Notes: generated by a model not told the origin, from the letters alone. 24,000 nt of DNA from Candidatus Heimdallarchaeota archaeon (GCA_018238155.1 JABCTZ010000019.1:138975-162974); one strand, 5' to 3'. Counted from the stretch's first letter, positions 1,291 through 19,135 are shown. Translations and numbers: made by a program.

Positions 1291-1446
1291 AGAAAAATTT
1301 GCATTTTACTTACATTAATTTTAATGTTCCAAACCCTCTAACAAAAAATATTTCTAACAGTAATCTACATTAAGACCTACTATTAATCTCTTGAAGTTAA
1401 ATTTGATGATTTAAAATGAATTATTTTTAACTTTAAAAGTAAAATT

Positions 1447-2889
1447 ATGAAAGGTAATAATTGGGTTGACACAATGAAAACAAATTCTGAATTATTAAAT
1501 CAAATAGATTTAGATCGTATTCTAAAAAAAGCATCTACATTGGGTGCATCTTACACAGACATTCGATTTCAAAATTACCAAGAAGAAACAATTCAAATTG
1601 AAGATGAGAAGTTAGATAATTTTAACTCATCAAATCGAGTAGGGATTGGTGTTCGAGTAACAGTAAATAATGCTGTCGGTTTTGCTTCAACGAGTGACTT
1701 AAACAAAAAAAGTGTTGATGAGACAATAAGAGTAGCTGTTAAAGCAGCAAAATCTTTTACTAGTAAAAAAGGAGTCTTTGCTCAACCAAAAAAATTAGTT
1801 CAAAAACAAATATTTAAACCAACAAAAATCAATCCTTTTGATATATCTCCAGAAGAGAAAGTTTCTCTCCTTATCGAAGCTAATAAGGCGGCTAAGATAA
1901 GTGATGAAATCAAAAGCAGAACTACTATAATGGGCTATTCTGAAAATTATCGATACTTTATCTCTTCTGAAGGTTTTCAAAGTATCTCGTCTATTCCTCT
2001 AATCGGTATTCATCATTTTTCTGTTGCTTCTGTTAATGGTAAGCTTGAAAGAATGGGATACGGGACAGGGGATTGTTTGGGTTATGATTTCATTACATCT
2101 CGAAATTGGGATGATTTCACTGTAGATATATCGGAATTAACTGTTCAAGCAGTAAATGCTGTTGCTCCTTCTTCAGGAACATATACAGTAATTGCCGACC
2201 CAGATCTAGTCGGATTGCTTGTTCACGAAGCTTTTGGTCATGCAGCAGAAGCTGATTTAGTTTTTACTGGTTCTTCTACTTTGAAGGATCGATTAGGTGA
2301 GCAATTAGCTGACGAACAAGTAACAATAATAGATCAAGGAGATATTCCTGGTGGTTATTTTGTACCATTTGACGACGAGGGTGTAATGAAAGAAAAAACA
2401 GTTATTTTAGATAAAGGTGTTCTTAAAGGATATATGCACGATAGAAACTCCGCAAATGAATTACACGTTCAACCCACTGGAAATGCCCGTGCGCAAGATT
2501 TCGAAAACCAACCACAAGTACGAATGACTAATACTTTTATCGATAATGGAAAATATTCATTCGATGAAATGGTAGAGGATATCAAAACAGGGATATATAT
2601 CAAACGAAAAGGTGGCGGAGGAGGGCAAGTAGACACCGCTTCTGGAACGTTCACTTTTCGATGTGGAGAAAGCTACATGATTCGTAATGGAGAATTAGCT
2701 GAACCTGTTAGAGGTGTAGTTTTAAGTGGACTGATTTTAGATACTTTGAAAACAGTTGATGCTGTAGGAAATGATCTAGCTATTCATAATCGCTTCTTTG
2801 GCGCTTGTGGAAAAGGAGGGCAGCGCGCTTCTGTAGGGAGCGGAGGTCCTCATATTCGAATTCAAGAAATAACTATTGGAGGGAAATAA
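1447..2889 (+). CDS. tldD: TldD-family (peptidase U62) metalloprotease
   Basis: 480-aa ORF with the TldD catalytic motif HEAFGHAAEAD (HExxxH) and the glycine-rich C-terminal region (KGGGGGQVD, GACGKGGQ). It is followed immediately by its usual partner pmbA. An alternative start exists at Met10 (1474). Confidence 0.9.
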   Translation: MKGNNWVDTMKTNSELLNQIDLDRILKKASTLGASYTDIRFQNYQEETIQIEDEKLDNFNSSNRVGIGVRVTVNNAVGFASTSDLNKKSVDETIRVAVKAAKSFTSKKGVFAQPKKLVQKQIFKPTKINPFDISPEEKVSLLIEANKAAKISDEIKSRTTIMGYSENYRYFISSEGFQSISSIPLIGIHHFSVASVNGKLERMGYGTGDCLGYDFITSRNWDDFTVDISELTVQAVNAVAPSSGTYTVIADPDLVGLLVHEAFGHAAEADLVFTGSSTLKDRLGEQLADEQVTIIDQGDIPGGYFVPFDDEGVMKEKTVILDKGVLKGYMHDRNSANELHVQPTGNARAQDFENQPQVRMTNTFIDNGKYSFDEMVEDIKTGIYIKRKGGGGGQVDTASGTFTFRCGESYMIRNGELAEPVRGVVLSGLILDTLKTVDAVGNDLAIHNRFFGACGKGGQRASVGSGGPHIRIQEITIGGK

Positions 2890-2890
2890 G

Positions 2891-4216
2891 ATGGACTATT
2901 GTGAAATAGCAGTAAACAAAGCAATTAAACTTGGAATGGATGAAGTAGATGCAGTTGTGCGAAATGAAAAGGTAATTCAAATTAGTTTTGCCCAAGAAAT
3001 TCAAAACATTAGCACTCTAACTAAAACGCTCCTAAGTATTAGAGTGATAAAAGATAAAAAAATTGCAACCTATTCAACAACATTGTTGAATAAGCAATCG
3101 ATAAATGATATTGTAAAACGAGCAGTAAAAATAGCTAAAGTTGCTCCTGAGGATCAAAATTGGTCATCACTTAATAAAACGATTAAAAAATCTACCGTGA
3201 AAAATCTCTATGATCCTATCATAAATAAACTCGATTACGGTGAACTTACCGGAGCTATTAATGCCGGTTTAGATAATGTTGCTAATGATGGGAAAGCGTT
3301 GATCACTCGAGGCGTTCTTCATGTTACCAAAAGGAAGTTTTCCTTTTCAAATTGCTATTGTGATTCAATGGAACGAAAATCTAGCCACTTTTTTACCTAT
3401 GTTCTTGCAAAAGCAGTTAAAGGAGGTGAAAGTACAGGAACTGAACAACTCCAAACTAGATTTTGGAAGGATATTGATTTTACTTCACTTACAAATTCAG
3501 CGGCAGAGATGTCACAAAAATATCTAAATGCTAAACCCATTAAAAGCAAAAAAATGCCTATTATAATAAAAAGTGATGTGTTCGCACGAATTATGAATCG
3601 TATGTTAAGTCCAAGTATAAGTGCTGAAACGGTACGTAAGGGTCGATCTCCTCTAAAAGATAAAATTGATTCTCAAATAGCAATGGAATGTTTCAATGTA
3701 ATTGATGATGGGACATTAGATAAAGGGTTGAATTCTAGTAGTTTTGATCAAGAAGGTTATCCAACTCAAAAAACAACTATTATTTCTAAAGGCGTGCTAA
3801 AGAATTACATCTATGACCATTATTCTGCAGTATTGGATAACACACAATCGACAGGGAATGCTAATCGAGGTGGGAGAGCAAAACCAAGACCTAATGTTAG
3901 CAATTTAATTTTGGTTAATGGTGACAAGGATTTTGATGAAGTCATTAGTGAAACTAAAAATGGATTGCTCATCGAAGAAACAATTGGTGAATGGTTGTCA
4001 AATCCGACAAGTGGGCAGCTAAATGCTACCGTAACTCATGGACAGCTTATTGAAAACGGAGAGTATTCTCAATCGGTAAAAAATGTTATTCTTTCGGGAA
4101 ATTTCTGGGAAGCTATCAAAAATGATATTGAAGCAATTTGTAATGATAGTAGAAATTCCGGAAATATTTATTCACCAAGCGTAAAATTCTCAGAACTTGT
4201 TGTTGCAGGAAAATGA
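2891..4216 (+). CDS. pmbA: PmbA/TldE-family protein, non-catalytic partner of TldD
   Basis: The ORF-track entry 2876..4216 begins at a TTG. I prefer ATG at 2891, one base after the tldD stop (2887-2889), with GGAGGG at 2878-2883 as a Shine-Dalgarno-like element. It is TldD/PmbA-like in length and C-terminal pattern (GNANRGG, GxLIEETIGEW) but has no HExxxH motif. Confidence 0.87.
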   Translation: MDYCEIAVNKAIKLGMDEVDAVVRNEKVIQISFAQEIQNISTLTKTLLSIRVIKDKKIATYSTTLLNKQSINDIVKRAVKIAKVAPEDQNWSSLNKTIKKSTVKNLYDPIINKLDYGELTGAINAGLDNVANDGKALITRGVLHVTKRKFSFSNCYCDSMERKSSHFFTYVLAKAVKGGESTGTEQLQTRFWKDIDFTSLTNSAAEMSQKYLNAKPIKSKKMPIIIKSDVFARIMNRMLSPSISAETVRKGRSPLKDKIDSQIAMECFNVIDDGTLDKGLNSSSFDQEGYPTQKTTIISKGVLKNYIYDHYSAVLDNTQSTGNANRGGRAKPRPNVSNLILVNGDKDFDEVISETKNGLLIEETIGEWLSNPTSGQLNATVTHGQLIENGEYSQSVKNVILSGNFWEAIKNDIEAICNDSRNSGNIYSPSVKFSELVVAGK

Positions 4217-4260
4217 AAGAGCAAAGCAAAAATATCATCATCTTTGCTCTTCATCTTTTT
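4217..4260 (+). terminator. Hairpin plus T-run downstream of pmbA
   Basis: Perfect 10-bp inverted repeat AAGAGCAAAG (4217-4226) / CTTTGCTCTT (4242-4251) with a 15-nt loop. It starts right after the TGA stop and is followed by TTTTT at 4256-4260 and a further T-run near 4275. Confidence 0.45.
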
Positions 4261-4683
4261 CTATTTATTAATCATTTTTTTCCAAGTCCATTAAAGAAAA
4301 CAGGAAATGGAAAATCATTTAATAAAATCCATTACTAGAAAAACTTAGGTTGCTCAATATGCTTTACCTCTCTATCCATCTAGAACATGCTTGACGCGTT
4401 TGTTTTTAACTCCTCCTAGATGACGTAAGAGTAGAATAGCAACCAGTTTATTGTTTTTGGAGGTTTCAAAAATTACTAATCAGTTGATAGTAGATTCCTT
4501 TGCGGAAAAGATAACTAATTCAGAACGTGCATTTGCTGAGTTTGGCATTAAAAAAAATGGCCAAGCTATTGAACACTCTAGAGAAATCTATGCACAAACT
4601 TGAACATGCAAAACAACTATTGGAAAATAAGGTATCTAATAATGGAAATTAGAAACGGGATAGTTGAAAACAAATATTCATCT

Positions 4684-5215: not shown

Positions 5216-7048
5216 CTAAATTTCATTTAAATCTAATTCCTTCAATTTTTCATCTGAAGGTCTTCCTGTTTTCTGGTCATAATCTCGACATCTGTACCAA
5301 TCTTTCAATTGTTTTGCAAAATCTGGGACGTTACCTTCCGTTGGTCCTTCAAGACTCTGAAGCATAACTTTTGGTAGAAACTCAACAGCAGGTGTCCATC
5401 CTAGTTTTAGATTGATTAATCGTTTCAAAGCGAACAATCTGTCACCAAATAAAAGGAGGTCATCTAATGATACTTGTTTATCAAGGGCAATTGATAATTG
5501 TTTAGCAATAAGTGTTGCAGGCGGATTGAAGAATTGACACAAACCAACGGCATTGTAGAGTTGTCTATAGCTTTGTAATTTAGCTAATGGTTCTGCAATA
5601 TTGTTATCAAAACGACTGTTAGGCAGATCAACAACACCTATATCAGGAAAATTCATTCCTTGTTGAACCATGTAAGCATCACCATTCATATGACATGCTC
5701 CTCTTGGACTAGTAATATACATTACAGCCAAACCACTAAAAGCTCTTGGATCATGAGTTGGTGCTTCTAAACCTGCTACTTGTGGTGCTAATTCTAAATG
5801 ATCATATTTTTCAGCTAGGACTTTGCTTCCTTCTGCTAAAGTATTACCAATCTCTTCTCTCAAAGCAATAAGTTTGAGTAATTCTAATAATGAATCAATA
5901 TCTCCAAAGGAACAGCTAATGTTAGTTGGCAAATCTGATTTTGGGATAAACCCCTTTTCAATTAGATCAAATAGCACACCTATTGTTGCTCCTGCACTAA
6001 TAGTATCCATTCCAAAATCATTTGCTAGATAGTTGGCATAAGTGATTGCTTCCAAGTCAGTAATACATAAATTAGAACCAAAAGACGCTAGAGTTTCAAA
6101 TTCAGGACCATCTCTTTTCAATTTAAAACGTCCCTCTTTAATTTCAATTTCTCTGCCACAAGAAATCGGACAACGGTAGCAAGTAGATTTACCCGTTAGG
6201 ATTGTCTCAAACATAGTTGTGCCTGAGATATTTGTACCATTTTCCAGTGTTCCTTTCGACCAATTCTTAACAGGCATGTCACCATACAATTCAAGAGCAA
6301 TATCAACATAGCCTGCTGTACCAAATTGACTGAAAACTTCAGTTGAATAATCAGCTCGAATAATCTCATAAGCTGCTTTAGAAATGTGGTCATACTCATC
6401 CGGCAAATCAAAATCTCTATTGGAACCAAAAATTGCTATTGCCTTCAGATTTTTTGAACCCATAGTAGCTCCCATACCTGTTCGTCCGGCAGCTCGACCA
6501 CCTGCAGTCATAATATTCGCATATTTTACTAGATTTTCACCCGCGGGACCAATACAGGCAATTTCACTACGTTTATTATTCAAAGTGGATTTTAGCTTCT
6601 CTAATGTCTCATAAGTTCCAAGACCCCAGAGATTAGTTGCATCTCGAATGGTTATCTCATCGTCATTAATCTCGAGAAAAACCGGCTGATCAGCTTTGCC
6701 TTCAATAATAAGACCGTCATATTTAGCGAATTTTAAGTAAGGACCAATTTTTCCACCTATATTCGATTCACCCCAAAAACCGGTTAAAGGGGATCTAGCA
6801 CAAAATGTTGATCTAGGTGTAGAATAAGATGGCAAACCAGTAAGAACGCCAGTCATGAAGTAAAGATCGTTTTCAATTGCTAATGGATCTGAGAGTGAAT
6901 CTAAATCCTTTATTTTCGACCAATAATAGTATGCGGCTAATCCACTGCCACCAAGAAATTTTTTACCAATTTCTAAGTCAAGTTTCTTTGTTGATATCTC
7001 TTTAGATGAGAGATTCACTCTAAGAATTCTGCCACGAAATCCAGACAT
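5216..7048 (-). CDS. aor: Aldehyde:ferredoxin oxidoreductase (tungstopterin AOR family)
   Basis: 610 aa. The N-terminus is AOR-like (GRILRVNLSSKEI...GGSGLAAYYYW). The 4Fe-4S ligand motif CYRCPISC (C-x2-C-x3-C) is present, plus a distal Cys in GLCQFF. Length is typical of the family. Confidence 0.92.
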   Translation of the reverse strand: MSGFRGRILRVNLSSKEISTKKLDLEIGKKFLGGSGLAAYYYWSKIKDLDSLSDPLAIENDLYFMTGVLTGLPSYSTPRSTFCARSPLTGFWGESNIGGKIGPYLKFAKYDGLIIEGKADQPVFLEINDDEITIRDATNLWGLGTYETLEKLKSTLNNKRSEIACIGPAGENLVKYANIMTAGGRAAGRTGMGATMGSKNLKAIAIFGSNRDFDLPDEYDHISKAAYEIIRADYSTEVFSQFGTAGYVDIALELYGDMPVKNWSKGTLENGTNISGTTMFETILTGKSTCYRCPISCGREIEIKEGRFKLKRDGPEFETLASFGSNLCITDLEAITYANYLANDFGMDTISAGATIGVLFDLIEKGFIPKSDLPTNISCSFGDIDSLLELLKLIALREEIGNTLAEGSKVLAEKYDHLELAPQVAGLEAPTHDPRAFSGLAVMYITSPRGACHMNGDAYMVQQGMNFPDIGVVDLPNSRFDNNIAEPLAKLQSYRQLYNAVGLCQFFNPPATLIAKQLSIALDKQVSLDDLLLFGDRLFALKRLINLKLGWTPAVEFLPKVMLQSLEGPTEGNVPDFAKQLKDWYRCRDYDQKTGRPSDEKLKELDLNEI

Positions 7049-7096: not shown

Positions 7097-7513
7097 TTAA
7101 AGGAATTTAGTGTCGATTTTTTGTGCTGTTTTAATTAACTCTTGAGCAGCTTTGACCGAACGCAAAACCTTCATCATATTTCCAATAAGATTGAATTTCT
7201 TACTCATAATTCCTTTAATTGGATCAATTTCTCCTTTGATTAATTTAATCCAATTGGAATAAATTCCAACATATTGGTAAGCAGTTTCAGGAAGATTGTC
7301 ACCTTCATTGAAATAAGCCACACTTCTACAAACACCATGATATAAATCAATATGAAGTACAACTTTGTTACTAAAAACCTCATCAGGTTTAACTACAAAA
7401 AGAAAATCGCCTTCCCAATTTTTAGCTGCTTCTTGCCAATCCTTGCCTTCTTCACCATTAAGTTTATCCTTAAACGCTTTTATCCATTCTTCGGATGGAA
7501 AAGTAATTGCCAT
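7097..7513 (-). CDS. SCP2 (sterol-carrier-protein-2-like) domain protein
   Basis: The ORF-track entry starts at a TTG (7603). ATG at 7513..7511 (MAITFPSEEWIKAF...) is the more likely start. The C-terminal pattern GEIDPIKGIMSKKFNLIGNMMKVLRSVKA matches the SCP2 motif (G-x-hD-x-x-x-A-h-x-x-G-K-h-x-h-x-G-x-h). Confidence 0.75.
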   Translation of the reverse strand: MAITFPSEEWIKAFKDKLNGEEGKDWQEAAKNWEGDFLFVVKPDEVFSNKVVLHIDLYHGVCRSVAYFNEGDNLPETAYQYVGIYSNWIKLIKGEIDPIKGIMSKKFNLIGNMMKVLRSVKAAQELIKTAQKIDTKFL

Positions 7514-7811
7514 TTGATATCTTATCTCCAATTTAAGTTTTGTAAATATTGACTCATCAATATTTAAATGTTCATTATGAATAGTATAGAAAAAGAAAGT
7601 CAAAGGATAATAGGCTAGATAGTTGGTTGCAACAAGCTTTTAGAAAATACGAAAATCAATTTGAGAAAGAATAATACTCAATAGAAGTTTTTAAAATCCT
7701 TAACAATTCAATTTTTGTTAGAAAGAGTTGTTTTAAGTGATGGGTGTAATTATTGTCAATCAAATATAAATTTGAGCAAGCAGGATCAGAATGAATGTTA
7801 GTAGATTGATT

Positions 7812-8946: not shown

Positions 8947-11900
8947 CTATTTCTCGGATAATTCTTTGAAAGATCCTGTCATATCTTTAACATGTTCATT
9001 AATGACTTCGGATAAATCGTTCGTTTTGTCAATTGACATGGTAGTTCTCTTAGCAAAACTGGAAATTTGTTTAAGCATTACTTCTTCTAAATCATCTACT
9101 GATTTGAGAAAAGCTTCAGCTATTTCCATATTACTTCTATTTGAAAGTTCAAACTGCTTTCGAGCAAAGAGTGTAGCTTCTCGTTTGACTTTCTGAAGCA
9201 CTCGATCAAAACCATCTAATAAATCAACAATTAATCGGTCTGTACTCAAACCAACTCTTTCACCCATTGCGTTTATCTCTACATCTAAATCTACTAAAAA
9301 TCTGTTGGATTTAGTTTCGCAAGCAGTAATTGTTTTCATCGATGCTTTCTCTATTTTTTCCATATCTTTCTTCAGATTCACATTGAGATTACTCATTGTT
9401 TTTCCATAAAAAGAAAGATGGTTTCGTCCTATTTGATGTAATTCATTTTTGTATTTCTCTATATTTGCTGCTTCTCTTTCTATACGAGTGATTACTTGCT
9501 CAGTTAATTTTTGGCGGATTCGTTCAAGGTTTTCAGTATATCTCTCTTCAATGCCTAATACTGCTTGCTCACCAATAACTGTTACTCTCTCTGTTCTTCT
9601 AGAAGCTTCTGCAGTAATATTACCTACCGTGCTAAATATTGCTCCTTCTATTCCAGCTGTTTTAGTTTCTAATTCTAAAATAGCTCTGTTAGTAATAGAT
9701 GAGGTTTGTTCTCGCAAATCACTAGTTAACTTTTCACAATGCTCGAAAATAATTTCTTTTGAATTACTCAAGATTTCTTGTTGTTTTGTTAAGTCTTCTT
9801 TCAAAGATTGTGTATAACGGTCTCTAAATTCATAGGCATTTCCTATTTGTTTTTCTTGTAACGCATCGATTTTCTTATCTAAGATTTTAAGTTGCTGTCT
9901 GTGCATTTTGTTAATTTCATTATACATATCAATGGATTCATCTTGTTGTTTTTCATTCAGTTCACCAAGTTCAATTTCTTGTTTACTGAGTTCAGCTGCA
10001 GCTTGTCTAAATATTCTGTCTGCACCAGAAGTAATATTAGATCGGATTGTTTGTGCAGTTGAATTAACGCCATTTGATAATTGGCTAATAGCTTTTTCAG
10101 TAAGGGCAGTAATAGTTGAACGAGAAGATTGCTCTTGATCTAATAATGAAGAAGCATCATTAGCAATTGTTTTTTCTACTTTTACGAAGCTTTCTTGCGT
10201 TTTAGAAATATATTTCTCTCGAGCACGTATGAAATTATCTTTAAGTGAAATACTGTCTTTGGTAGTTCGAGAACTTTGACGATTAAGCATGTTATCAATA
10301 GATTTGCTTAATTCCTTTCTAGTACGTTTGAAAGCTTCAATATCGTTAGAAAAGAATCGATTAAGATTATTGTCAGTCCTCTTATAGAATTGTTTATACT
10401 CCGTGCCGAGTTCTACTAGTAATTTAGAAACTGGAAACTTTGTTTCGTCAATTAATCTATCTTGTTCTTTCTTAAAGGTTACAAGTCTGTTGTTAATTGA
10501 TAAACTATCTTTCTTGAGAGTATTGGCAATTTCTTGAAGAGAGCGCCTTGTACTAGCACCTGTTTCAGCACCAAAATGTCTGAAATTTTTAGAAATTTGA
10601 GTGTAGGAATCGCGAATAAGTATTATTAATTCCTCTTTTGAAACTTGATTGTTGTTTTTTATTTGATCTACTAGCTTGTCCATTTTATTCTCTAATGCTT
10701 CGAGGTTTTTGTCAACATTTGAATCAATTCTATCTTGAATTGTTTTAGTGCTTTCACCTCTCCATCGTTCAAGTTTTTTAGTTAAGGAGGAAACTTCTTT
10801 TGAAGTATCCCTTAATTCTTTCTGATGTTTAGTTGAAAATTCTTTGTAAAGTGATTGGAAAGATCTATCTTGTTCTACTAACTTCTTTTCTAAATTATCG
10901 AAATTTGATGAAAAACCCTTATCAATTCGCTCTTTTAAGCGCTTGAGGTCCTTCTCAAAATTTTCTTCTTTCTTTTTAGAATCATTTTTGAATTGCTTGC
11001 TGATATCCTGCAATTCTACTTGCAATCGTCGGTCGAATCTAGTTAGAAAAGTAGTTTCATCTTTTATAATACGTTCATTTAATTTTTCAAGGTTTATCAT
11101 GAGTTCCTTTACAGGTTCAGTTAAGGTCATATTGATAAAATTGACCAGGTTTTGTACACTTGTACCGTTATTATCTACTGTATTTAGAAAGTCAGCTTCA
11201 AGTTTTGCGATAATATCACTAAGATCCATTTGATATTCTGCAACAGCTCCATTTAGAATGATGAGGAATTGTTCTATCATTTCGTTAAGAACATCTCGAG
11301 ACCGCTCTGAAGTATTATGAATAAATTTGTTCTTTTCATTAGTTATTTTTTCAATAGAATTAACAAATTTATCTTCAATAGCATTCATCTCATCGTTTGC
11401 AGAAGAAGTGTTTTTGAGAGATTGTTCAATTAAAATCTCTATTTTATTATCAAAATCATTTGCTAGCTCTTCCGCAGCTTTGCTAAAAATCGAAAAGTGA
11501 TTTTCCATTAAACCGGAAAGTGATTGTTTCTGTTGTTCTATAACCACCTTTTGTTCATCCAAACTTGCAATAGTAATTTTAGAAAAACGCGGTTGGATGG
11601 AATCAACTGTAGTCACCAGTGGCCGTTTTTGTTCTGTTAATACACGAACCATTTCTGTTTGGAAGTTTAGCGATGATTCTTCAATTGCTTCTGTTAAAGA
11701 GCTAATTGCTTCATCAATTTGTTCGTTAATTGGTCGAGTAACTTTCTCTAAATCATCTATACCAGAATCGAGTACGGTAAAAATAATATCCTCAAATTCA
11801 TCCTTAGATGTATTGAAAGCTTCTAAGACTTCATCGAAGGCAGAATTGGCTTTAGTTTCAAAATCAATAATATCACTTACTCGTGCATCAACAGTAGCTT

Positions 11901-12537
11901 CAAGTTGCTTCTCTGCTCTAGCATAAGTAGCAATTAACGTTTTAGAGAAATTTTGCGCTAAAGGGATTAATCCTCGCTTAATATTATCCGTTGTTTCCTT
12001 TGTTCGGATTGAAGATTCTTCAAGAAATTCATTAGATGTCTTTGTTATTCGGTTTAAATCTTTCAAATCCATTTCAATGGATGCAAGGATTCCACTGAAA
12101 GAAGCATCCATAGCCATTTCGAGGTCCTTAATATCTTCCTCGGAACGTTCAGTTCGTTTCTCACGTTCATCTGTACTGGCTTCTCTTACATTCTTTATTG
12201 CTCCCTCTGTGAAATTATGAACAACTTCTGTAGTAGCTTCCAATTCACTCTTGCGTGCTTCAAGAGAACGAGTTAAAGTACTCAAAACATTGATGAATTT
12301 CATAACAGGGAATACAGCAATATAGCGACGATCATCATCATTTCCCACAGGGACAGTGAACCCTCGTTCATGCATAGCCTCTAAAATCGCGTTAATTCTT
12401 CCCTTAGAAACTCTACTTCGTTTTGAGATTTCCATAGGGGTTAATGCACCATCATTTACCAAAGCTTGGAAAACTCGTTTCTCATTTGCAGATAAACGAG
12501 GTAGTAAACCGAGAGCCTTTGCTTCTTTTTTAGACAT
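8947..12537 (-). CDS. Giant (1196 aa) protein: N-terminal TrmB-type winged-helix DNA-binding domain plus about 1100 aa of segmented alpha-helical / coiled-coil sequence
   Basis: Uninterrupted ORF with ATG at 12537 and GGTGA 8-12 nt upstream. Residues ~10-95 (LGLLPRLSANEKRVFQALVNDGALTPMEISKRSRVSKGRINAILEAMHERGFTVPVG..RRYIAVFP) match the TrmB N-terminal wHTH pattern. The rest is E/K/S/N/T/I/L-rich and shows no TM segment, Walker A motif or Cys cluster. Gly/Pro helix breakers occur roughly every 40-70 residues. Confidence 0.85.
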   Translation of the reverse strand: MSKKEAKALGLLPRLSANEKRVFQALVNDGALTPMEISKRSRVSKGRINAILEAMHERGFTVPVGNDDDRRYIAVFPVMKFINVLSTLTRSLEARKSELEATTEVVHNFTEGAIKNVREASTDEREKRTERSEEDIKDLEMAMDASFSGILASIEMDLKDLNRITKTSNEFLEESSIRTKETTDNIKRGLIPLAQNFSKTLIATYARAEKQLEATVDARVSDIIDFETKANSAFDEVLEAFNTSKDEFEDIIFTVLDSGIDDLEKVTRPINEQIDEAISSLTEAIEESSLNFQTEMVRVLTEQKRPLVTTVDSIQPRFSKITIASLDEQKVVIEQQKQSLSGLMENHFSIFSKAAEELANDFDNKIEILIEQSLKNTSSANDEMNAIEDKFVNSIEKITNEKNKFIHNTSERSRDVLNEMIEQFLIILNGAVAEYQMDLSDIIAKLEADFLNTVDNNGTSVQNLVNFINMTLTEPVKELMINLEKLNERIIKDETTFLTRFDRRLQVELQDISKQFKNDSKKKEENFEKDLKRLKERIDKGFSSNFDNLEKKLVEQDRSFQSLYKEFSTKHQKELRDTSKEVSSLTKKLERWRGESTKTIQDRIDSNVDKNLEALENKMDKLVDQIKNNNQVSKEELIILIRDSYTQISKNFRHFGAETGASTRRSLQEIANTLKKDSLSINNRLVTFKKEQDRLIDETKFPVSKLLVELGTEYKQFYKRTDNNLNRFFSNDIEAFKRTRKELSKSIDNMLNRQSSRTTKDSISLKDNFIRAREKYISKTQESFVKVEKTIANDASSLLDQEQSSRSTITALTEKAISQLSNGVNSTAQTIRSNITSGADRIFRQAAAELSKQEIELGELNEKQQDESIDMYNEINKMHRQQLKILDKKIDALQEKQIGNAYEFRDRYTQSLKEDLTKQQEILSNSKEIIFEHCEKLTSDLREQTSSITNRAILELETKTAGIEGAIFSTVGNITAEASRRTERVTVIGEQAVLGIEERYTENLERIRQKLTEQVITRIEREAANIEKYKNELHQIGRNHLSFYGKTMSNLNVNLKKDMEKIEKASMKTITACETKSNRFLVDLDVEINAMGERVGLSTDRLIVDLLDGFDRVLQKVKREATLFARKQFELSNRSNMEIAEAFLKSVDDLEEVMLKQISSFAKRTTMSIDKTNDLSEVINEHVKDMTGSFKELSEK

Positions 12538-12555: not shown

Positions 12556-12577
12556 TGTTTCATTTAAAGATGAAACA
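12556..12577. promoter_or_regulatory. Palindrome TGTTTCAT-N6-ATGAAACA in the promoter/5' region of the wHTH giant gene (candidate operator)
   Basis: Perfect 8-bp arms (12556-12563 and 12570-12577) flank the A/T spacer TTAAAG (TATA-like CTTTAAA on the coding strand). The element lies 19-40 nt upstream of the ATG at 12537. Confidence 0.3.
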
Positions 12578-12726
12578 CAGTAATTTCTAACCGAATATTT
12601 GATATTAATAGTAGATAAATGACGGGCACTGCTTAAATGATTTATGTCCTTGCTATACATTGGATAAAGCTGTCAAAAGAAAAAATTCAAAAGAGAGAAG
12701 ATTTGAAGTCATACTATATTCCATTT

Positions 12727-12837
12727 GGGCCGGTAGATCAACCTGGTAGATCGTCTGATTCGCAATTGACTAAAAGGTTGCAAACCTTTCAACAAAAATT
12801 CAGAAGGCTACGGATTCAAATTCCGTCCGGTCCACCA
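12727..12837 (+). tRNA. tRNA-Ala (anticodon CGC) with a ~34-nt intron in the anticodon loop and an encoded 3' CCA
   Basis: Hand fold. The acceptor GGGCCGG/CCGGTCC carries the Ala identity pair G3:U70. U8, A14, G18G19 and A21 are present. The D-stem is GATC/GATC and the anticodon stem is TCTGA (12754-58)/TCAGA (12800-04). The loop starts TTCGCA and is then interrupted by ~34 nt (about 12765-12798) containing the hairpin AAAGGTT-GCA-AACCTTT. The T-arm is ACGGA-TTCAAAT-TCCGT, the discriminator is A, and CCA sits at 12835-12837. Exact splice junctions cannot be fixed by eye. Confidence 0.85.
12812..12835 (+). repeat. Left copy of a direct repeat (T-arm and acceptor 3' strand of tRNA-Ala)
   Basis: GGATTCAAATTCCGTCCGGTCCAC matches 20087-20110 at 20 of 24 positions in the same orientation (hand alignment). 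Confidence 0.6.
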
Positions 12838-12906
12838 TTTATTCTCTTCTTTCTCTCTCAATTACATGTTTGAACAATTTTCTTCTTCTTGTAAATCAAT
12901 GGATAA

Positions 12907-14601
12907 TTAGTCCTTAACATCCTTCTTACTAAGGTATTGTTCTTTCAATTTATTGCAGAACTCTGTTGTTGCTATCATATCCTTGCCAATCTTATTATCC
13001 TCAATTTCAAGAATTCTACTATTTGGTATTACTGAGAGTAAATCGTGTGTCACCGCAAGAACTGAAGCATTAGTACCCATAACATACTCTACAAAAAGGC
13101 TAATTATTTTGCGTTTATTTAATTCATCCAAGTTGGCTGTAGGTTCATCTATAAGCATTATTCTCGGTGATAGTACTAATCCCAGAAGCATTGTTGCCCT
13201 TTTCTTTTCTCCTTGTGAATAGTTTTCTACTAACTGATTTTTAATATCATCCAACGAGAGATATTGCAATAAATGATTTGTATCATAAAAACTCTGTTTA
13301 CTTTTTTTATTAACTGTAAAATAATTTATATTTTCAATTAAGGTCATAGAGGGATAGAGATTGATATATTGTGAGGAGTAGTAGACTGAGTGGGATCGCA
13401 GTTTATCAATTGCTGTAAAATTAGATGAGAGGATTTCTTCACCTAGAATTCTTATTGAACCGATAAAATCCCTATCAATCCCTGATACAAGGTTCAGTAA
13501 TGTTGTTTTTCCTGTGCCTGATGGACCAATTAGAAACACTAATTCACCAGGATAAATTTGTAGATTTAAGTTTTGTAAGATAAGTTCTTTTCTGGGTGAA
13601 TAATAGAATTTTGTCAAATCTGTACATTCTAAAATACTTGTCTCTTTTTTGTCTCGTTTTCTTGGTTGATATTGTGGGATTTTCACATGTTGGGAAATTT
13701 CTTTTCCGGCAAAGCTTTCTGGTGATTCGGGGTTCTCAAGATAGATTTTCTTTGATTCGTGATTTACAATAAATTTGACTTTCTTGTTTAATGATAGAAG
13801 TTCTTTGATTTGGTTTGGTAGGAATAAGTAAGAATAGCTATCAATATGCGAAACAAAAGTCTCAGAAGCAACAGGTTTATCCTTATCTTCACTTTCCTCT
13901 GGAAAATTTTCCTGAGTATAAATAGCTCCTAATCTACCGTTGAAAATAAGAAAAGATTCAGAGACCACAGAAAAGTAGTTAGGATCATGACTAACAACAA
14001 CAATGGTTGTTTTTTCCTCTTGATTTATTTTTTTAAGTAGATCCAAAATGATTTTTGTGTTCTTTTTATCAAGTTGACCTGTAGGTTCATCAGCTAATAG
14101 TATTGATGGAGAGTTGGTGAGGGAAATTGCTAAACTAACTCGCATACTTTCTCCCATTGAAAGCAGTTTTGCCTTTCTAAGAGCGAGATGTTTGATCTCC
14201 ATTTGCTCTAGTATTTCATCAACTTGTTTTTTTGATTCTTCTAAGCTCTTACCTAAAAGCCTAGTTGGTACCATTAAATTCCGTTCAACAGTAAGCTCTG
14301 GAAAGAGATTATAATGTGGTATTTGATTAAGGAATCCAATATTCTGCAAACGGAAATCATATAATTCTTTCTTTGACATTAAATCAACGTCATGCGATAA
14401 AACATTCACTTTACCACTAGTTGGTTGTTCTAAACCACTGATTATTCTCATGAGAGTAGATTTCCCAGCACCACTGGGACCAATTATTGAAACAAAACTA
14501 CCACTCTTGATATCTAAATCACAACCACCTAAAGCTACAATGGAACGACCTAGTTCAGGCTTAGGATAGATTTTTGTTATTGCCTCAAGATTAATCATCA
14601 T
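12907..14601 (-). CDS. ABC transporter ATPase with two fused nucleotide-binding domains (MacB/LolD/FtsE-like NBDs)
   Basis: 564 aa. NBD1 has Walker A GPSGAGKST, Q-loop LNQ, signature LSMGESMRV, Walker B ILLADEPTGQLD and H-loop VSHD. NBD2 has Walker A GPSGTGKTT, signature YSQGEKKRA, Walker B MLIDEPTANLD and H-loop VTHD. Signatures of the S-x-G-E-x-x-R type resemble the LSGGEQQR of the MacB/LolD family. The start ATG (14601) overlaps the permease stop (ATGA), with GGAGGG upstream. Confidence 0.9.
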   Translation of the reverse strand: MMINLEAITKIYPKPELGRSIVALGGCDLDIKSGSFVSIIGPSGAGKSTLMRIISGLEQPTSGKVNVLSHDVDLMSKKELYDFRLQNIGFLNQIPHYNLFPELTVERNLMVPTRLLGKSLEESKKQVDEILEQMEIKHLALRKAKLLSMGESMRVSLAISLTNSPSILLADEPTGQLDKKNTKIILDLLKKINQEEKTTIVVVSHDPNYFSVVSESFLIFNGRLGAIYTQENFPEESEDKDKPVASETFVSHIDSYSYLFLPNQIKELLSLNKKVKFIVNHESKKIYLENPESPESFAGKEISQHVKIPQYQPRKRDKKETSILECTDLTKFYYSPRKELILQNLNLQIYPGELVFLIGPSGTGKTTLLNLVSGIDRDFIGSIRILGEEILSSNFTAIDKLRSHSVYYSSQYINLYPSMTLIENINYFTVNKKSKQSFYDTNHLLQYLSLDDIKNQLVENYSQGEKKRATMLLGLVLSPRIMLIDEPTANLDELNKRKIISLFVEYVMGTNASVLAVTHDLLSVIPNSRILEIEDNKIGKDMIATTEFCNKLKEQYLSKKDVKD

Positions 14602-17534
14602 GTACCCTCCATAATTGATGGTTGAAACTCAAAGAATTTCTTCTGATAAAAATGTCTGATGAGGATATCTGCTCCTAATAGACTCAATAATATGATTACC
14701 AAATAAAGTGAAAACTGGGCATAAAAAGGAACGTTCAGAATCCAATTCTCTGCTTTAATTAGAACTCTTAGAAGAAAAACAAGAGACCCAATACCTGCGC
14801 CAATGCTTATTGGGAGAATTAGAAGTAAAATAAGCAAGTACTCAACAAGGAAATTTCTTGAAATAGTCTTAATAGAAAATCCTCGATAACGTAAGACAAG
14901 TATCTTCTCTCGTCGAGCATTGATCATATCTTGTACTAAAACAATACCAATAATGAAAAATGAAATACCTCCAAAAATGCCTGTTACAATTGATAATGCT
15001 ATGATACTAGTAGCAAAAGTTGGCAAGTAATCAGGATAAACATCCATCCAAGTTGTATGATCAATTGAATAAGGTATTGATTGTAATGCTAGTAAAAGTG
15101 CATTCATTTCTGATTGTTTTTTGACTTTAATAATAACAGCCTCGTCTATTAAAATAACTGAAATATCTTCATTATGCTGAAGAACTGTTTGGAAAGCTGA
15201 TTCAGTCATAACTAGAAAAGGAATAGAATTTTTTTCAAAATGAAATGTTGAAAGTTGGTAGTCATTTAATAGTATTGGAAAGATACTATACATATCAAAA
15301 ACTTGGAATTCCTTTTCAACAAGCTGCTCATCATCAGCTGTATTATTGTTAAAACCTAACATTATACTATTGTTTTCTGAATCAGAAACAATCCTCCTAT
15401 TAATAAATAGGTCTTCTGACTGTGTGAGAATGGAATTCGGAGCATCACTGAATCCCTCTAAGTCATCTATAGTAATTCCCAAATTATAATCTCTGGAATA
15501 GGATACTGTTGATCCAAAGGTTGGTGAGATAACCAATACTTGGTAATCAACGTCAAATATCGATAACTGGACAAGAGAATAATTTGCAGCTGAATGGACA
15601 GAAGGAAATAATGAAATATCTGAAAGTAAAGACGCAGTGTTGGACGGATTTTCTAAATGAATAGAAACGTCAGAACCGAGATCAAATTTTGCAGAATAGG
15701 TAGCATGTTGTGATATATAAAGTGGAATTAAAAAAGCTTGAATAAAGATTAGAAATGAAAGAGCAATGAAAAAGGATTGTTTTTTGTGATGTTGAAAAGC
15801 AAGAGAAAGATTGTGCAAGACTATCGAGAATTTTTTTGACGCTTTTTTCCAGAGGGATTGCGATAACTTTACTAACTGTTTAAGCAACGAATTTATTAAA
15901 ATAAAAAGCAAACAGATAATTGTTATTGAAATGGAAATATACAAAAAGATATCAAAAATAAAGACTATCTCAGAATCTAAGACAGTCTGTAAATTTAATA
16001 AATTTTTAATAATCAATAATGCTGTCATAGCTAAAAGTGAAAACAAACTAGTTAATCCGATGACCAGTATTTGAGTTTTGGTTGAACCACTAGTGGTAGC
16101 TGTGAAAGAGCTAAGACGATTTGGGTAGAATTTTTCAACTTTTCTGAGAAGAATTACTAAATTGACAAATGAAAAGACAAACAAGAAAATAAAGAACAAT
16201 AATGAGGGGACAAATGCCATACCAAAAGAGATTAGGTTTAGTGTAAGAGAACTTGCCTTTGTTATACCTGAGATAATTCCAAGGTTCAAATATGTTAATG
16301 GAACAGCTAAAATAAGAGCTAAAAAACAAGAAGAACTAATTTCTATAAAACGAGAAATGGTGAATATCTTGAGGATAGTACTACGAGGAAAACCACGAGT
16401 TATGAAATTAGCATAAATGTCTGATAGCTTGAGAGTATTAGATGAAAAACTAAGCCAAAGAATAAACAAAGAAAATACTAATGATGCAAACCCAATGGCA
16501 AAAAGTCGAAACCATTGTTGTTGAATATCCCTTTTAAAGTGAATCATGAAGTCTGCTAATTCAAGAGTGACACTGGCGGAAAGATCATGATAATATGAAA
16601 AACCAGATAAATCAGGTAAATTCTCAGCTGAATTATAAACTTCTTTCAAATCAGCAATTTTTAATGAAGAAAAATCATAGAGGAATTGTATATGGATTTC
16701 TATTTCCGATGATAATAGTTTTGGGAAGGCATGAAAGAAATCAGTTAAGTAATTAATAGAAAGTAATAGCAAAGGTTGATCAGATATAAAGCTTGTATAA
16801 TAATCTAGAATTTTAAAAAGAAAGGGATTTTCCTCTTCAATGATACTTTCAAGCAGGAAATCGTTTGTATTGAAAATATTGGAAATACTAACATTAAATG
16901 GATCAATAACGAATGTGTTATTTACAATTAATTCAGATTCTTCTTGAACAAAAGGTAAAATTGAAATGGTATCACCAATTGAATAGGTGTATTCAAGAGT
17001 AGTCTGTTCTGGCAAATCATTTTTTTGTACTAATATACATTCATCAAAAGAAATAGGAATTTCATTGATTATCTCAAAATATTTAGAGATTTGATTTAAG
17101 GATTCATTCTGTATAAATAAAATATTTGAAGAAGCGATTTCCCCCTCTGAGTAATATTGTAATTGAGCATCACAATTGGATATATAACCATCAATATATT
17201 TGTCTAAATTTGAGTTAAAAATAATGTCATCAATATCTCTATTAATTTCTGCAATAAGGTTTGAGGGAATATTTGATGTATTAGTAAGATAAGAATTAGA
17301 GAAGAAATAACCTATAGAATGTTGTTCATCTCCTTCTAAAGGATGTAAAGATTGGTATTCCAATAAAAAAGAAGACTGTACACTTAAACCAATGAAAAGT
17401 ATTGGGAAAAATAAAAGAAATGGAAGCATAAAACTTAGAATTGAGAATAGTAAGTGTTTTTTATCACTGAATGTAAAAGAAAATGCACAATACAGTAATG
17501 ATTTAATTGAGAAAGTATCTTTTTGAATAACCAT
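14598..17534 (-). CDS. FtsX/MacB-type ABC permease with two FtsX modules, about 10 TM and two large extracytoplasmic domains
   Basis: 978 aa. By hydrophobicity the layout is TM1, ECD1 (~285 aa), TM2-4, TM5-6, TM7, ECD2 (~210 aa), TM8-10. Both modules carry the FtsX-type cytoplasmic motif after the post-ECD helix (ANFITRGFPRSTILKIF and LVLRYRGFSIKTISRNF). Both ECDs carry N-x-S/T sequons. Confidence 0.85.
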   Translation of the reverse strand: MVIQKDTFSIKSLLYCAFSFTFSDKKHLLFSILSFMLPFLLFFPILFIGLSVQSSFLLEYQSLHPLEGDEQHSIGYFFSNSYLTNTSNIPSNLIAEINRDIDDIIFNSNLDKYIDGYISNCDAQLQYYSEGEIASSNILFIQNESLNQISKYFEIINEIPISFDECILVQKNDLPEQTTLEYTYSIGDTISILPFVQEESELIVNNTFVIDPFNVSISNIFNTNDFLLESIIEEENPFLFKILDYYTSFISDQPLLLLSINYLTDFFHAFPKLLSSEIEIHIQFLYDFSSLKIADLKEVYNSAENLPDLSGFSYYHDLSASVTLELADFMIHFKRDIQQQWFRLFAIGFASLVFSLFILWLSFSSNTLKLSDIYANFITRGFPRSTILKIFTISRFIEISSSCFLALILAVPLTYLNLGIISGITKASSLTLNLISFGMAFVPSLLFFIFLFVFSFVNLVILLRKVEKFYPNRLSSFTATTSGSTKTQILVIGLTSLFSLLAMTALLIIKNLLNLQTVLDSEIVFIFDIFLYISISITIICLLFILINSLLKQLVKLSQSLWKKASKKFSIVLHNLSLAFQHHKKQSFFIALSFLIFIQAFLIPLYISQHATYSAKFDLGSDVSIHLENPSNTASLLSDISLFPSVHSAANYSLVQLSIFDVDYQVLVISPTFGSTVSYSRDYNLGITIDDLEGFSDAPNSILTQSEDLFINRRIVSDSENNSIMLGFNNNTADDEQLVEKEFQVFDMYSIFPILLNDYQLSTFHFEKNSIPFLVMTESAFQTVLQHNEDISVILIDEAVIIKVKKQSEMNALLLALQSIPYSIDHTTWMDVYPDYLPTFATSIIALSIVTGIFGGISFFIIGIVLVQDMINARREKILVLRYRGFSIKTISRNFLVEYLLILLLILPISIGAGIGSLVFLLRVLIKAENWILNVPFYAQFSLYLVIILLSLLGADILIRHFYQKKFFEFQPSIMEGT

Positions 17535-17536
17535 TT

Positions 17537-19090
17537 TTAATTCTCTTCTCTGCTTTTTTGTTTTTTCTTATAGCGGTGAAAGTAATAGTAACCAACTCCT
17601 CCAAAAATAATAGGAATAATGATTGAACTGGTTATTATTAGCCAATAATAGGGTGATTTGATTGCTCTAATAAAATAAGGTTTACTTATGTCATTAGCAT
17701 ATATACCATATATACCAAGTGAGGAGATTATGTTATTATCTCCTCCAAAAGAATGATATTGAGAATGATCATTGTATGCATACCCTAGTAAATATGAATC
17801 AAGATAGGAGTTAGATGTACAGTTATAGATAAAACGCGAATGGAAAGGATTTAAATTACTTTCCAGATTAAGATTTATGTAATTCCAATCTCCATTAATC
17901 GTCAATGAGTAATTGATTAAAGCTATTTGTCTGAACTCTGAATGTGCAGTAGATTTTCTATAAATTATTGAAAGTTGCGAATTGTGAATATATGCATCAA
18001 AAATCTCAAGTCCTTTATATGTATAAAATCTAACATTGGGGTCTATTCTTGTATTCAATGTTACATATGCGCTTTCGGATACACTTGTTAAGTTAAAGGT
18101 TGAAGAGGTACTGTTGTATTCAAATAGAGCAAATTCTGTTGGAGAACTTGTTGAAGCAGATAAGGTACAGAGTAAGTAGATGTTGTCTGTTAACTGATTA
18201 TACAACAATCTTCCAACTCTTATGCTACCTTTTATATTATAACCTGGATTGGAGAATGAGCAATTAGAATAATTAGTTAGAGAATGAGTAAGGAAATCGT
18301 ATTCATATAAACGATAGTTATCTTTTCCTGTATCAAAATAGAGAAAATAGGCACTGTTATTATTTGGATTATAACAAGAGGAAATATCCTCTAACATACC
18401 ATATTCAATATATTTATTAGTTGTTTTTTTAGTTTGATTGAGATCAAATACTATGATATCTGTCTTATTCCCTAAAATATTATAGCTAGTTAGTAAGTAA
18501 ATTGCTTGATTATTATCTAAAATATTTACTCCTAAAATACTGGGTGTTGACCGATAGTCAATGAGATAGTTAGTTCCATCAATAAGAAAAATCTTTTGAC
18601 TTTCATTTGAAGTTGAATTATAGTAATAACACCAAAACTCTCGATTATATTCTTGCGTAGTCTCATTTTTCACAGAGAGAGCATAAGCAAAATAAAATGA
18701 TTTCTCCATAGTTGAGGTAAAAAAGTATTGTCTTTCAGGATAAAACCCCTTTTCTTCCAGTAATTCTTTTTCTACTACTTCTCCATCTTCTATAAAAAAA
18801 TGGCTAAGTTTTGTACTATCTTTGTGGTCAGAAATACCAATAAAGTGAAGCTGGTTATCAATTAAATAGCTTCCACATAATCCTAAATCATCACCAGTTA
18901 CTATTAGATTTGAAACACTTAGAAACTCTTTTCCTTGAGCAAAACTTATCATAAATGGAGAAATAAATAAATAAGAAATCAAAAAAATATTGAATAAATG
19001 CTTCTTCCCTAACATATGTAAACATCCTTTTAACCTGTTCTTAACATAATTTTGGTAGCTTTTCTCGTTACAGTTTTTTACTATTTTCAT
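17537..19090 (-). CDS. Type-I membrane-anchored surface protein: signal peptide, beta-rich Tyr/Asn-rich ectodomain, C-terminal TM and basic tail
   Basis: 517-aa ORF. A signal-like segment MLGKKHLFNIFLISYLFISPFMISFAQG begins at Met26 (alternative ATG at 19015). I counted about a dozen N-x-S/T sequons by eye. The C-terminal anchor is WLIITSSIIIPIIFGGVGYYYF followed by HRYKKKQKSREEN. The stop lies 2 nt before the permease ATG (TAA-AA-ATG). Confidence 0.72.
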   Translation of the reverse strand: MKIVKNCNEKSYQNYVKNRLKGCLHMLGKKHLFNIFLISYLFISPFMISFAQGKEFLSVSNLIVTGDDLGLCGSYLIDNQLHFIGISDHKDSTKLSHFFIEDGEVVEKELLEEKGFYPERQYFFTSTMEKSFYFAYALSVKNETTQEYNREFWCYYYNSTSNESQKIFLIDGTNYLIDYRSTPSILGVNILDNNQAIYLLTSYNILGNKTDIIVFDLNQTKKTTNKYIEYGMLEDISSCYNPNNNSAYFLYFDTGKDNYRLYEYDFLTHSLTNYSNCSFSNPGYNIKGSIRVGRLLYNQLTDNIYLLCTLSASTSSPTEFALFEYNSTSSTFNLTSVSESAYVTLNTRIDPNVRFYTYKGLEIFDAYIHNSQLSIIYRKSTAHSEFRQIALINYSLTINGDWNYINLNLESNLNPFHSRFIYNCTSNSYLDSYLLGYAYNDHSQYHSFGGDNNIISSLGIYGIYANDISKPYFIRAIKSPYYWLIITSSIIIPIIFGGVGYYYFHRYKKKQKSREEN

Positions 19091-19135
19091 TTGTTTTTTA
19101 TAAAAAAGAAAAAAAATAATTGGAAAGAGTATTAT

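Follow-up and report, generated by a model that had tools for sequence, protein, structure and literature searches.

TrmB and TrmBL2 (5bpd, 5box, 3qph) are archaeal DNA-binding proteins of ~260-340 aa in which a helix of roughly 30 residues lies between a winged helix-turn-helix (wHTH) and an effector domain. TrmBL2, which is called an archaeal chromatin protein in its PDB title, is itself an architectural chromatin protein and has been described both as a nucleoid-associated protein and as an SMC (structural maintenance of chromosomes) roadblock (PMC11840125). A 24,000-nucleotide stretch of DNA from Candidatus Heimdallarchaeota archaeon (GCA_018238155.1, JABCTZ010000019.1:138975-162974; hereafter the window, GC ~32%) carries a giant TrmB-like gene at 8947-12537. 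The wHTH and following helix of its 1196-aa product align with TrmBL2 at 28-30% identity, but ~1,110 residues of hendecad coiled coil stand in the position of the linker helix and the effector domain is absent. A TrmB-type DNA-binding head fused to a very large non-enzymatic helical body had been recognized in the original prediction, made from the sequence alone, and a DNA anchor on a long scaffold is still the best reading of this protein. The accompanying statement that no chromatin-organizing role is described for TrmB proteins was wrong, since TrmBL2, the closest solved relative of the head, is such a protein. Our preferred interpretation, tentative and held with less than even confidence, is that the protein forms a rod, fixed in length and anchored to DNA. 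Its parts, as delimited with AlphaFold2 (AF2) models, their predicted local distance difference test (pLDDT) scores and an ortholog alignment with its insertions and deletions (indels), are as follows.

8947..12537, (-) strand: giant TrmB-like gene, 1196 aa, starting at the first ATG past an in-frame stop
12307..12537, (-) strand: head, residues 1-77, TrmB/TrmBL2-type wHTH, net charge about +3.8
10657..12306, (-) strand: N-arm, residues 78-627, ~50 hendecads with the 11/3 periodicity in constant phase; residue i pairs with residue about 1264-i
10633..10656, (-) strand: apex turn, residues 628-635, with an AF2 break at 629-633, the indel site, a lost core and the lowest conservation
8980..10632, (-) strand: C-arm, residues 636-1186, with mirrored conservation, pLDDT and covariation as for the N-arm
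8947..8979, (-) strand: C-terminal tail, residues 1187-1196 and the stop codon, pLDDT <50 at 1190-1196

The open reading frame (ORF) proved to be real. A search of 5.8 billion proteins returned 34 homologs at 42-100% identity, nearly all of them 1195-1200 aa long, which argues against a mis-assembly, and the sequence entropy of the protein is normal, indicating that it is not low-complexity. The named sources of these homologs are Heimdallarchaeota, Thorarchaeota and 'Asgard group', with the exception of one record labelled Bathyarchaeia; likewise, the ten loci found by scanning one genome per species lie in Heimdallarchaeota/Asgard metagenome-assembled genomes (MAGs), except for one with the Bathyarchaeia label. 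That exception (contig DATKZI010000043.1 of a 'Candidatus Bathyarchaeia archaeon' MAG, loci L003/L008) holds a full-length ortholog at 53% identity in Heimdall-type synteny (POR, Ldh_2, Topo IA, PfkB, acetyltransferase, target, EamA, tRNA synthetase), and for this reason the bin is probably mislabelled or contaminated. The lack of a transmembrane (TM) segment, P-loop or Cys cluster, noted from the sequence, was borne out when the protein was checked: the best 19-residue hydropathy is 1.16, the 1196 residues contain no Walker A motif and just 2 Cys, and no known enzymatic or TM family matched in the libraries tried, which included Pfam and PHROGs.

The head is a TrmB-type wHTH by several measures. 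Pfam places PF01978 (TrmB) at residues 15-61 with 33.3 bits against a gathering cut-off of 25.6, and AF2 gives the expected topology at residues 17-74, with helices at 17-29, 34-41 and 45-57 and strands at 61-64 and 71-74; both spans fall inside 12253-12510, where the wHTH had been predicted. The best solved-structure matches of the first ~112 residues in Foldseek are TrmBL2 chains (5bpd, 5box and 5bqt, 28-30% identity), and phmmer aligns residues 15-105 to TrmBL2 16-109 (E=5e-4), thus including the helix that follows the wHTH. No PF11495 (Regulator_TrmB) effector domain was found by Pfam at E<=1, and AF2 continues as helix to the C-terminus. Since the effector domain present in more distant Asgard relatives is absent here, the protein is probably not a ligand-sensing TrmB regulator.

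In the AF2 model the ~1,120 residues beyond the head are almost wholly helical (78-259, 277-312, 314-471, 475-628, 634-1129 and 1144-1195), with about five predicted breaks through all of which the hydrophobic register is continuous. The family-averaged hydropathy of residues 81-1196 has a single, sharp peak at a period of 3.666 residues, i.e., 11/3, with a power of 1198. A heptad coiled coil (power 11 at period 3.5) was rejected on this basis, as was 51/14, the period of Scy-type repeats (power 9). Each 84-residue interval peaks at 3.64-3.70, beyond the 99th percentile of shuffles, and the 11/3 phase holds steady, within 0.5-0.6 turn, from roughly residue 160 up to the C-terminus at 1196, so that the body comprises ~100 consecutive hendecads with no stutter. 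Counted in the frame starting at residue 82, hendecad positions 1, 5 and 9 are 55-62% ILVMFYW and positions 2 and 8 are 33-36%, while positions 0 and 7 are rich in K/R and positions 3 and 10 in D/E. The core is therefore an a/d/e/h(+i) hendecad, with adjacent basic and acidic stripes at the back of the helix. Coherence, defined as whole-length power divided by the value expected under perfect phase-locking, is 0.82 for the 11/3 period in the target, compared to 0.00-0.08 in unrelated long helical proteins from the same searches. The width of the hydrophobic face was set aside as an indicator of oligomeric state: at ~2.4 hydrophobic residues per hendecad it does not exceed that of ordinary two-stranded coiled coils and is uninformative.

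The length of this body is constrained nearly to the residue. Among 26 orthologs, down to 42% identity, the ~1,120-residue helical region has an indel at one site only, where three sequences gain a single residue after residue 630, and the remaining indels are confined to the wHTH wing, residue 13 and the termini. These results do not fit the segmented repeats with breaks every 40-70 residues that had been proposed for the body. Gly or Pro does occur about every 34 residues (with 10 Pro in the whole protein), but AF2 breaks the helix only about five times, the register is unbroken, and 120-residue profile segments of the family alignment, compared with each other in hhalign, yielded no significant internal repeat (best probability 41%). 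Nor is the body a chain of short spectrin- or apolipoprotein-like hairpins or bundles, but rather one long antiparallel hairpin. Among weak matches in the searches was a separate set of long helical proteins without a wHTH (P0199-P0207, 1387-1505 aa, named member 'Candidatus Adamsella sp.') that do have tandem internal repeats; two of them, P0199 and P0205, show a sharp hydrophobic period of 3.60 residues (power 322-344) rather than 11/3.

Evidence that the chain reverses came from correlating each residue i with residue S-i while scanning S. With conservation smoothed over 11 residues (538 pairs), the mirror correlation reached r=0.835 at S=1265, compared to 0.67 at best elsewhere, and none of 500 phase-randomized surrogates, each scanned over S, attained this value (their maximum was 0.79). 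All eight three-sequence subsets of the target family recovered S=1262-1269, with r=0.64-0.77. AF2 pLDDT in 10-residue blocks was mirrored about nearly the same point (r=0.926 at S~1261, reached by 0/2000 surrogates). Mutual information with average product correction (APC), taken along anti-diagonals, peaked at S=1264 with z=4.2, or 4.3 with column entropy regressed out; the eleven best S values of 500 all lay within 1256-1270, and this band held 23 of the top 0.1% of covarying pairs versus 8.6 expected, examples being 425/836 (I-W, L-T, T-G), 421/844 and 183/1078. Core-to-core register of the two arms requires S = 9 mod 11, i.e., 1263, which is inside the observed peak. A mirror test on single-sequence hydropathy was discarded because its positive control failed.

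The center of this symmetry has the properties of a turn. Both the indel site and the AF2 break at 629-633 fall at the midpoint of the helical region. Residues 627-635 form a polar, variable segment with abundant Gly, Asn and Asp, and core positions 630 and 633 have mean hydropathies of -2.6 and -1.0, compared to +3.2 to +4.4 at neighboring core positions. The coincidence of mirrored conservation, mirrored pLDDT, covariation, the indel site and the lost hydrophobic core indicates that the chain reverses at ~628-635, and by these computations the body folds into an intramolecular antiparallel coiled-coil hairpin. With ~550 residues per arm and the standard rise of ~0.148 nm per residue, an arm would measure ~81 nm and the rod ~80 nm; the C-terminal tail (1187-1196) lies beyond the mirror partner of residue 78. 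With regard to the covarying pair 183/1078 (window ~11989-11991 and ~9304-9306), most orthologs have Cys at both positions; the target and its nearest relatives have Thr/Asn, and a few others lack Cys at both, mostly having Ser instead. The two residues may connect the arms through a disulfide, a metal site or a packing contact.

Conservation along the rod is concentrated at three paired levels, referred to here as joints, where AF2 confidence is lowest (pLDDT versus conservation, r=-0.54), the paired low-confidence segments being the most conserved parts:

12109..12177, (-) strand: joint 1, N side, ~121-143, a pLDDT minimum paired with 1121-1143, highly conserved
9109..9177, (-) strand: joint 1, C side, ~1121-1143, AF2 break at 1130-1143, conservation 0.87
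11707..11778, (-) strand: joint 2, N side, ~254-277, AF2 break at 260-276, pLDDT 37-44, conservation 0.90
9508..9603, (-) strand: joint 2, C side, ~979-1010, pLDDT 41-42, conservation 0.91
11098..11184, (-) strand: joint 3, N side, ~452-480, AF2 break at 472-474, pLDDT 51-52, invariant P475
10102..10197, (-) strand: joint 3, C side, ~781-812, local pLDDT minimum of 53-55, mirrored to 461-480

The joints lie ~7, 28 and 58 nm from the rod base and are more conserved than the DNA-binding head, and the rod tip is the least conserved part. Conservation per 22-residue level is nearly equal between the arms (for example 0.90/0.91, 0.50/0.48 and 0.76/0.78). The N side of joint 2 is both the most conserved and the most acidic block, with G259, I260, L263, E264, V266, T267, P269 and I270 invariant; G989, E990, Q991, A992, V993, I996, Y1000 and E1002 are invariant on its C side. 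The N-arm has a charge of -30 and the C-arm of -18, giving a shaft of about -48 below a head of +3.8; acidity is greatest at joint 2, whereas slightly basic charge prevails in the distal third. Along the rod, neither a periodic arrangement of charges nor an even spacing of the joints was found.

The same architecture extends, in modified form, to other Asgard archaea. Eleven proteins scored E<=1e-30 in an exhaustive profile search of 1.84 billion cluster representatives: four were full-length (~1,195-1,198 aa) and seven were fragments. The weaker matches comprised short TrmB-like proteins (~240 aa) and a set of long proteins. Many of the long matches (717-1308 aa) combine a TrmB wHTH above the Pfam cut-off with 500-1,050 residues of 'Apolipoprotein'-type helix, and those that are named are all Asgard (Baldr-, Odin-, Thor-, Hod-, Hermod-, Hel-, Prometh- and Heimdallarchaeota). 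Most carry a C-terminal domain of ~150 aa that weakly matches PLD-fold proteins; it was detected as PF11495 in 5/12 distant relatives, at best with 27.2 bits against a gathering cut-off of 22.2. This Pfam match is the evidence relied on, as a profile-profile comparison of the domain with the short TrmB-like proteins gave a collinear alignment at a probability of just 2.5%. A metagenome scan for relatives added one sequence. The 11/3 power relative to expectation is also high in P0045 (1425/1554), P0048 (1455/1548), P0047 (1206/1557) and P0044 (614/737). Given that Asgard relatives share the wHTH, the giant hendecad helix and the effector domain, the architecture is, as far as sequence comparison goes, that of a TrmB protein with an enormously expanded linker helix, from which the Heimdall family lacks the effector domain.

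Several relatives depart from the target in ways that can be described separately. P0045, P0048 and L018 (L018 at 501-4415) are 1307/1308 aa long, consist of a wHTH, hendecad helix and effector domain, have no internal indels at 45-68% identity, and reach an 11/3 coherence of 0.92-0.94. For P0044 the AF2 model is poor (pLDDT 50) and its mirror is not significant, and the indel symmetry between P0044 and P0198 (r=0.40) is suggestive only. Pfam lists no domain in P0210-P0213 (Hod-, Hermod- and Promethearchaeota, 723 aa). Read by eye, these proteins appear to begin with an extension that contains Cys and His and is possibly zinc-ribbon-like. A wHTH-like segment follows, then just ~290 aa of helix with an 11/3 coherence of 0.01, an effector-like segment and a C-terminal extension of ~120 aa. 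With these included, linker length in the superfamily runs from ~290 to 1,050 residues.

The immediate surroundings of the gene contain the following features:

12556..12577: inverted repeat TGTTTCAT-N6-ATGAAACA, 8 bp, 19-40 nt upstream of the ATG, unique in the window
12727..12834, (+) strand: tRNA-Ala(CGC) with intron, 190 nt upstream and divergent, Rfam RF00005 at 53.5 bits
8909..8933, (-) strand: T-rich tract (T8) followed by the TATA-like box TTTAAATA, directly after the stop codon
7812..8855, (-) strand: EamA-family transporter (Pfam EamA), immediate downstream neighbor

The repeat had been taken for a palindromic promoter element belonging to the gene. It is present at 12556-12577, but it is absent upstream of five orthologs (L001-L005) and statistically weak, with 44/100 shuffles matching at <=3 mismatches, and it was therefore rejected as a conserved operator and provides poor evidence for any operator. 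The gene had also been called monocistronic, which is plausible given the T8 tract and TTTAAATA ahead of EamA; judged by general archaeal oligo-T termination and the TATA consensus, these likely represent a terminator and the EamA promoter. On the other hand, EamA is always the next gene on the same strand: an EamA/DMT gene follows in 6/6 loci (the window and L001-L005), down to 43% target identity. The tRNA-Ala beside the gene, likewise predicted, was confirmed by Rfam on the opposite strand, although ARAGORN missed it entirely; read from the sequence, it has anticodon CGC, a G3:U70 pair and an encoded CCA, and its intron lies within 37 unaligned nt in the anticodon loop of the Rfam alignment, which include tRNA positions 36-38.

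Upstream of the gene in L001, L003 and L005 are Topo IA, a small ORF, PfkB and a divergent acetyltransferase directly before it. The window keeps PfkB (20115-21077) and Topo IA (21340-23544) at a distance of ~7.6 kb and is missing the acetyltransferase; in between are the tRNA, a two-domain ABC ATPase (12907-14601), a 978-aa FtsX-like permease (14598-17534) and two ORFs without a Pfam match (17537-19090 and 19136-19792). Compared with the orthologous loci, 12637-19792 looks like an insertion adjoining a tRNA gene. On the other side are metabolic neighbors, namely a TldD/PmbA metallopeptidase pair (1447-4216, (+) strand) and an aldehyde:ferredoxin oxidoreductase (5216-7048, (-) strand), as well as a small SCP2-like protein (7097-7603, (-) strand), none of which is conserved next to orthologs. 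No neighborhood was found to be shared between the target and its distant relatives, or among the distant relatives.

Taken together, the TrmBL2-like head, hendecad register, length constraint, hairpin, joints, acidic shaft and missing effector domain, all obtained by computation, suggest how such a rod might work. The basic TrmB/TrmBL2-type head (residues 1-77) would bind DNA in the manner of TrmBL2, and the ~1,110 residues of helix, ~100 hendecads in one register, reverse at ~628-635 by the computations above and pack back on themselves as a presumably right-handed or nearly straight coiled-coil hairpin, bringing the C-terminus back to the head. The acidic shaft would point away from the DNA, its residue-exact length could act as a spacer or ruler, and the conserved joints could be hinges or docking sites, making the protein an architectural nucleoid-associated protein that serves as a spacer, tether or roadblock. 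Several observations weigh against this interpretation. Beyond EamA, no conserved partner gene was found at the target-family loci examined; the covariation comes from 29 phylogenetically related sequences; AF2 confidence is modest (pLDDT 66, predicted template modeling score 0.26); and DNA binding, the oligomeric state (TrmB precedent leads one to expect a dimer) and rod formation are features that we infer. In addition, P0045/P0048/L018 show no mirror-symmetric conservation, though the three-sequence test succeeds in the target family. Those proteins may form extended rods and not hairpins, which leaves the notion of a hairpin inserted into the TrmB linker unproven for the relatives and possibly wrong for that subfamily. 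Finally, an extended intermolecular antiparallel dimer would give equal mirror signals, with only the properties of the apex opposing it.

Such a dimer, ~165 nm long with a head at each end and bridging DNA at a fixed spacing, would account equally for the mirrored conservation and anti-diagonal covariation, and the hendecad frame is indeed continuous across the midpoint. We nevertheless regard it as very unlikely and favor an intramolecular turn, because hydrophobic core is lost at two consecutive core positions at the symmetry center, and this center is polar, variable, Gly/Asn/Asp-rich and the site of the sole tolerated indel, as expected of a loop and unlike a packed dyad; AF2 also breaks the helix there, though a monomer prediction is biased toward fold-back. 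Better placed, yet still unlikely, is a conventional, possibly autoregulatory TrmB-type transcription factor for its own gene and/or EamA, in which the coiled coil would be a physical sensor (of temperature, ionic strength or mechanical load) or an oligomerization module, after the example of TlpA and the KfrA-type regulators. TrmB proteins are mostly transcription factors, the head scores as TrmB/MarR, more distant relatives keep the TrmB effector domain, EamA is directly downstream in all six loci, and KfrA sets a precedent of DNA-binding head, coiled-coil tail and autoregulation (PMC7821693). The perfect 8-bp inverted repeat 19-40 nt upstream of the ATG would suit this explanation as well, were it not absent from the five orthologs and weak in its statistics. 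Moreover, the target is missing the effector domain, EamA appears to have its own TATA-like box past the oligo-T tract, and 1,100 indel-free residues with joints more conserved than the head are left unexplained.

A cytoskeletal protein with a DNA-binding head, forming filaments or lattices as Scy and FilP do, is in our view improbable. The rods would associate at their joints, aided by the complementary charges of the acidic proximal shaft and of the distal third, which is mildly basic, either laterally or head-to-tail, and staggered packing of this kind would demand strict length conservation. Conserved patches at defined axial levels of both arms and a charge polarity that runs from the basic head through the acidic proximal two-thirds to a distal third of slightly basic charge are consistent with this, as is the description of KfrA-type proteins as cytoskeletal coiled-coil DNA-binding proteins (PMC7821693), but neither a periodic charge pattern nor regular spacing of the joints (~7, 28 and 58 nm) accompanies them, and Pfam and profile searches found no homology to known filament formers. 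Least probable of all, and highly unlikely in itself, is an apolipoprotein-like protein whose hairpin is a lipid-free storage form that opens onto a membrane or lipid and tethers DNA to it. Exchangeable apolipoproteins have the 11/3 periodicity as their signature, no PDB sequence matches the body better than ApoA-IV, the Pfam Apolipoprotein model scores 23.7 bits here and above its cut-off in relatives P0046 and P0047, and the conserved neighbor EamA is a membrane transporter. The score in the target is nonetheless far under the cut-off of 90, the 10 Pro in the whole protein do not punctuate 22-mers, the basic stripe lies beside the acidic stripe on the helix back instead of forming a class-A wheel, the shaft is strongly acidic, and covariation and conserved joints point to a specific, stable arm-to-arm structure.

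Returning to the DNA-anchored rod, the protein represents a real and conserved variant, as yet undescribed, of a known family of DNA-binding proteins: its head is that of well-known archaeal regulators and chromatin proteins, the body is a coiled coil of SMC-arm length without an ATPase, and targeted searches of the searchable literature found no description of a wHTH joined to a giant hendecad hairpin. All source-named relatives with this architecture are Asgard archaea, the group to which one looks for the origins of eukaryotic chromatin and cell architecture. A broader proposal, which we consider unlikely, is that an Asgard 'giant TrmB' class with residue-exact shafts makes up a lineage-wide, unrecognized structural layer of the nucleoid, with the Heimdall version as a hairpin rod of ~80 nm whose ligand domain was lost. 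If true, 'giant TrmB' proteins would be fixed-length spacers, tethers or roadblocks setting distances from chromatin to other cell structures or from one DNA segment to another, and a non-ATPase counterpart of SMC arms or a functional analog of eukaryotic long coiled-coil chromatin tethers, found in the prokaryotes most closely related to eukaryotes. A rod that is a DNA-anchored ruler or tether would be a new type of nucleoid-organizing element, and very long right-handed coiled coils have a clean natural model in this rod.

The body resembles several known helical proteins without belonging to any of their families. Its PDB sequence matches are ApoA-IV (E=1.7e-7) and the MotA/TolQ/ExbB-domain chain 8vvi, and the best PADLOC model for residues 442-712 is the ZorA tail (E=2.9e-13, profile positions 295-572 only). 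The exchangeable apolipoproteins (ApoA-I/A-IV/E, PF01442) share the 11-residue amphipathic periodicity, but the target has no proline-punctuated 22-mers, keeps its register over ~100 repeats, and is an archaeal, cytoplasmic protein with a DNA-binding head. In ZorA, the tail forms a long right-handed coiled coil of about 70 nm whose length has been suggested to be functionally important (PMC11946911). It is, however, a parallel pentamer of single helices on a MotA-like membrane motor with ZorB as partner, whereas the target folds back on itself and has neither a TM segment nor a MotA domain; no MotA_ExbB Pfam match was found, and the neighbors are EamA, tRNA-Ala and an ABC transporter, with no adjacent zorB (or zorC/D/E). 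Since the defining features of both families are absent, the ApoA-IV and ZorA matches are read as a shared right-handed coiled-coil periodicity. In this respect the original prediction was not borne out as it stood: the helical part does score against known models, though as a member of neither family. A phage tape-measure identity was also rejected, as no PHROGs families matched at E<=0.01 and the genomic context is cellular.

KfrA proteins have a DNA-binding head and a long coiled-coil tail, act as autoregulators and are described as cytoskeleton-like (PMC7821693). The target shares with them this combination of a globular DNA-binding head and a long alpha-helical coiled-coil tail; KfrA proteins, however, are ~300-350 aa, bacterial and plasmid-borne, with no hairpin or hendecad register reported, and no sequence similarity of the target to KfrA was detected. 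TlpA of Salmonella, like KfrA, has a DNA-binding head with a coiled-coil tail. The cytoplasmic part of methyl-accepting chemotaxis proteins (MCPs) is likewise an antiparallel helical hairpin, for which Alexander and Zhulin in 2007 reportedly described arms of equal length, symmetric constrained indels and conservation mirrored about the tip. The MCP hairpin is heptad-based, ~20-30 nm long and most conserved at its tip, whereas the tip is least conserved in the target, in which no MCPsignal Pfam domain was found. Similarity to MukB in Foldseek was noise (template modeling score 0.08). In general plan, the target is nonetheless like SMC, Rad50 and MukB, as its long intramolecular antiparallel coiled coil would measure tens of nanometers and place both chain ends at a DNA-binding base. 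It differs in having no ABC ATPase head (no Walker A motif and no SMC_N/AAA Pfam match), in carrying an 8-residue variable polar loop at the tip instead of a globular hinge domain, and in its strictly hendecad periodicity, while its joints are conserved discontinuities comparable to the SMC elbow and joint.

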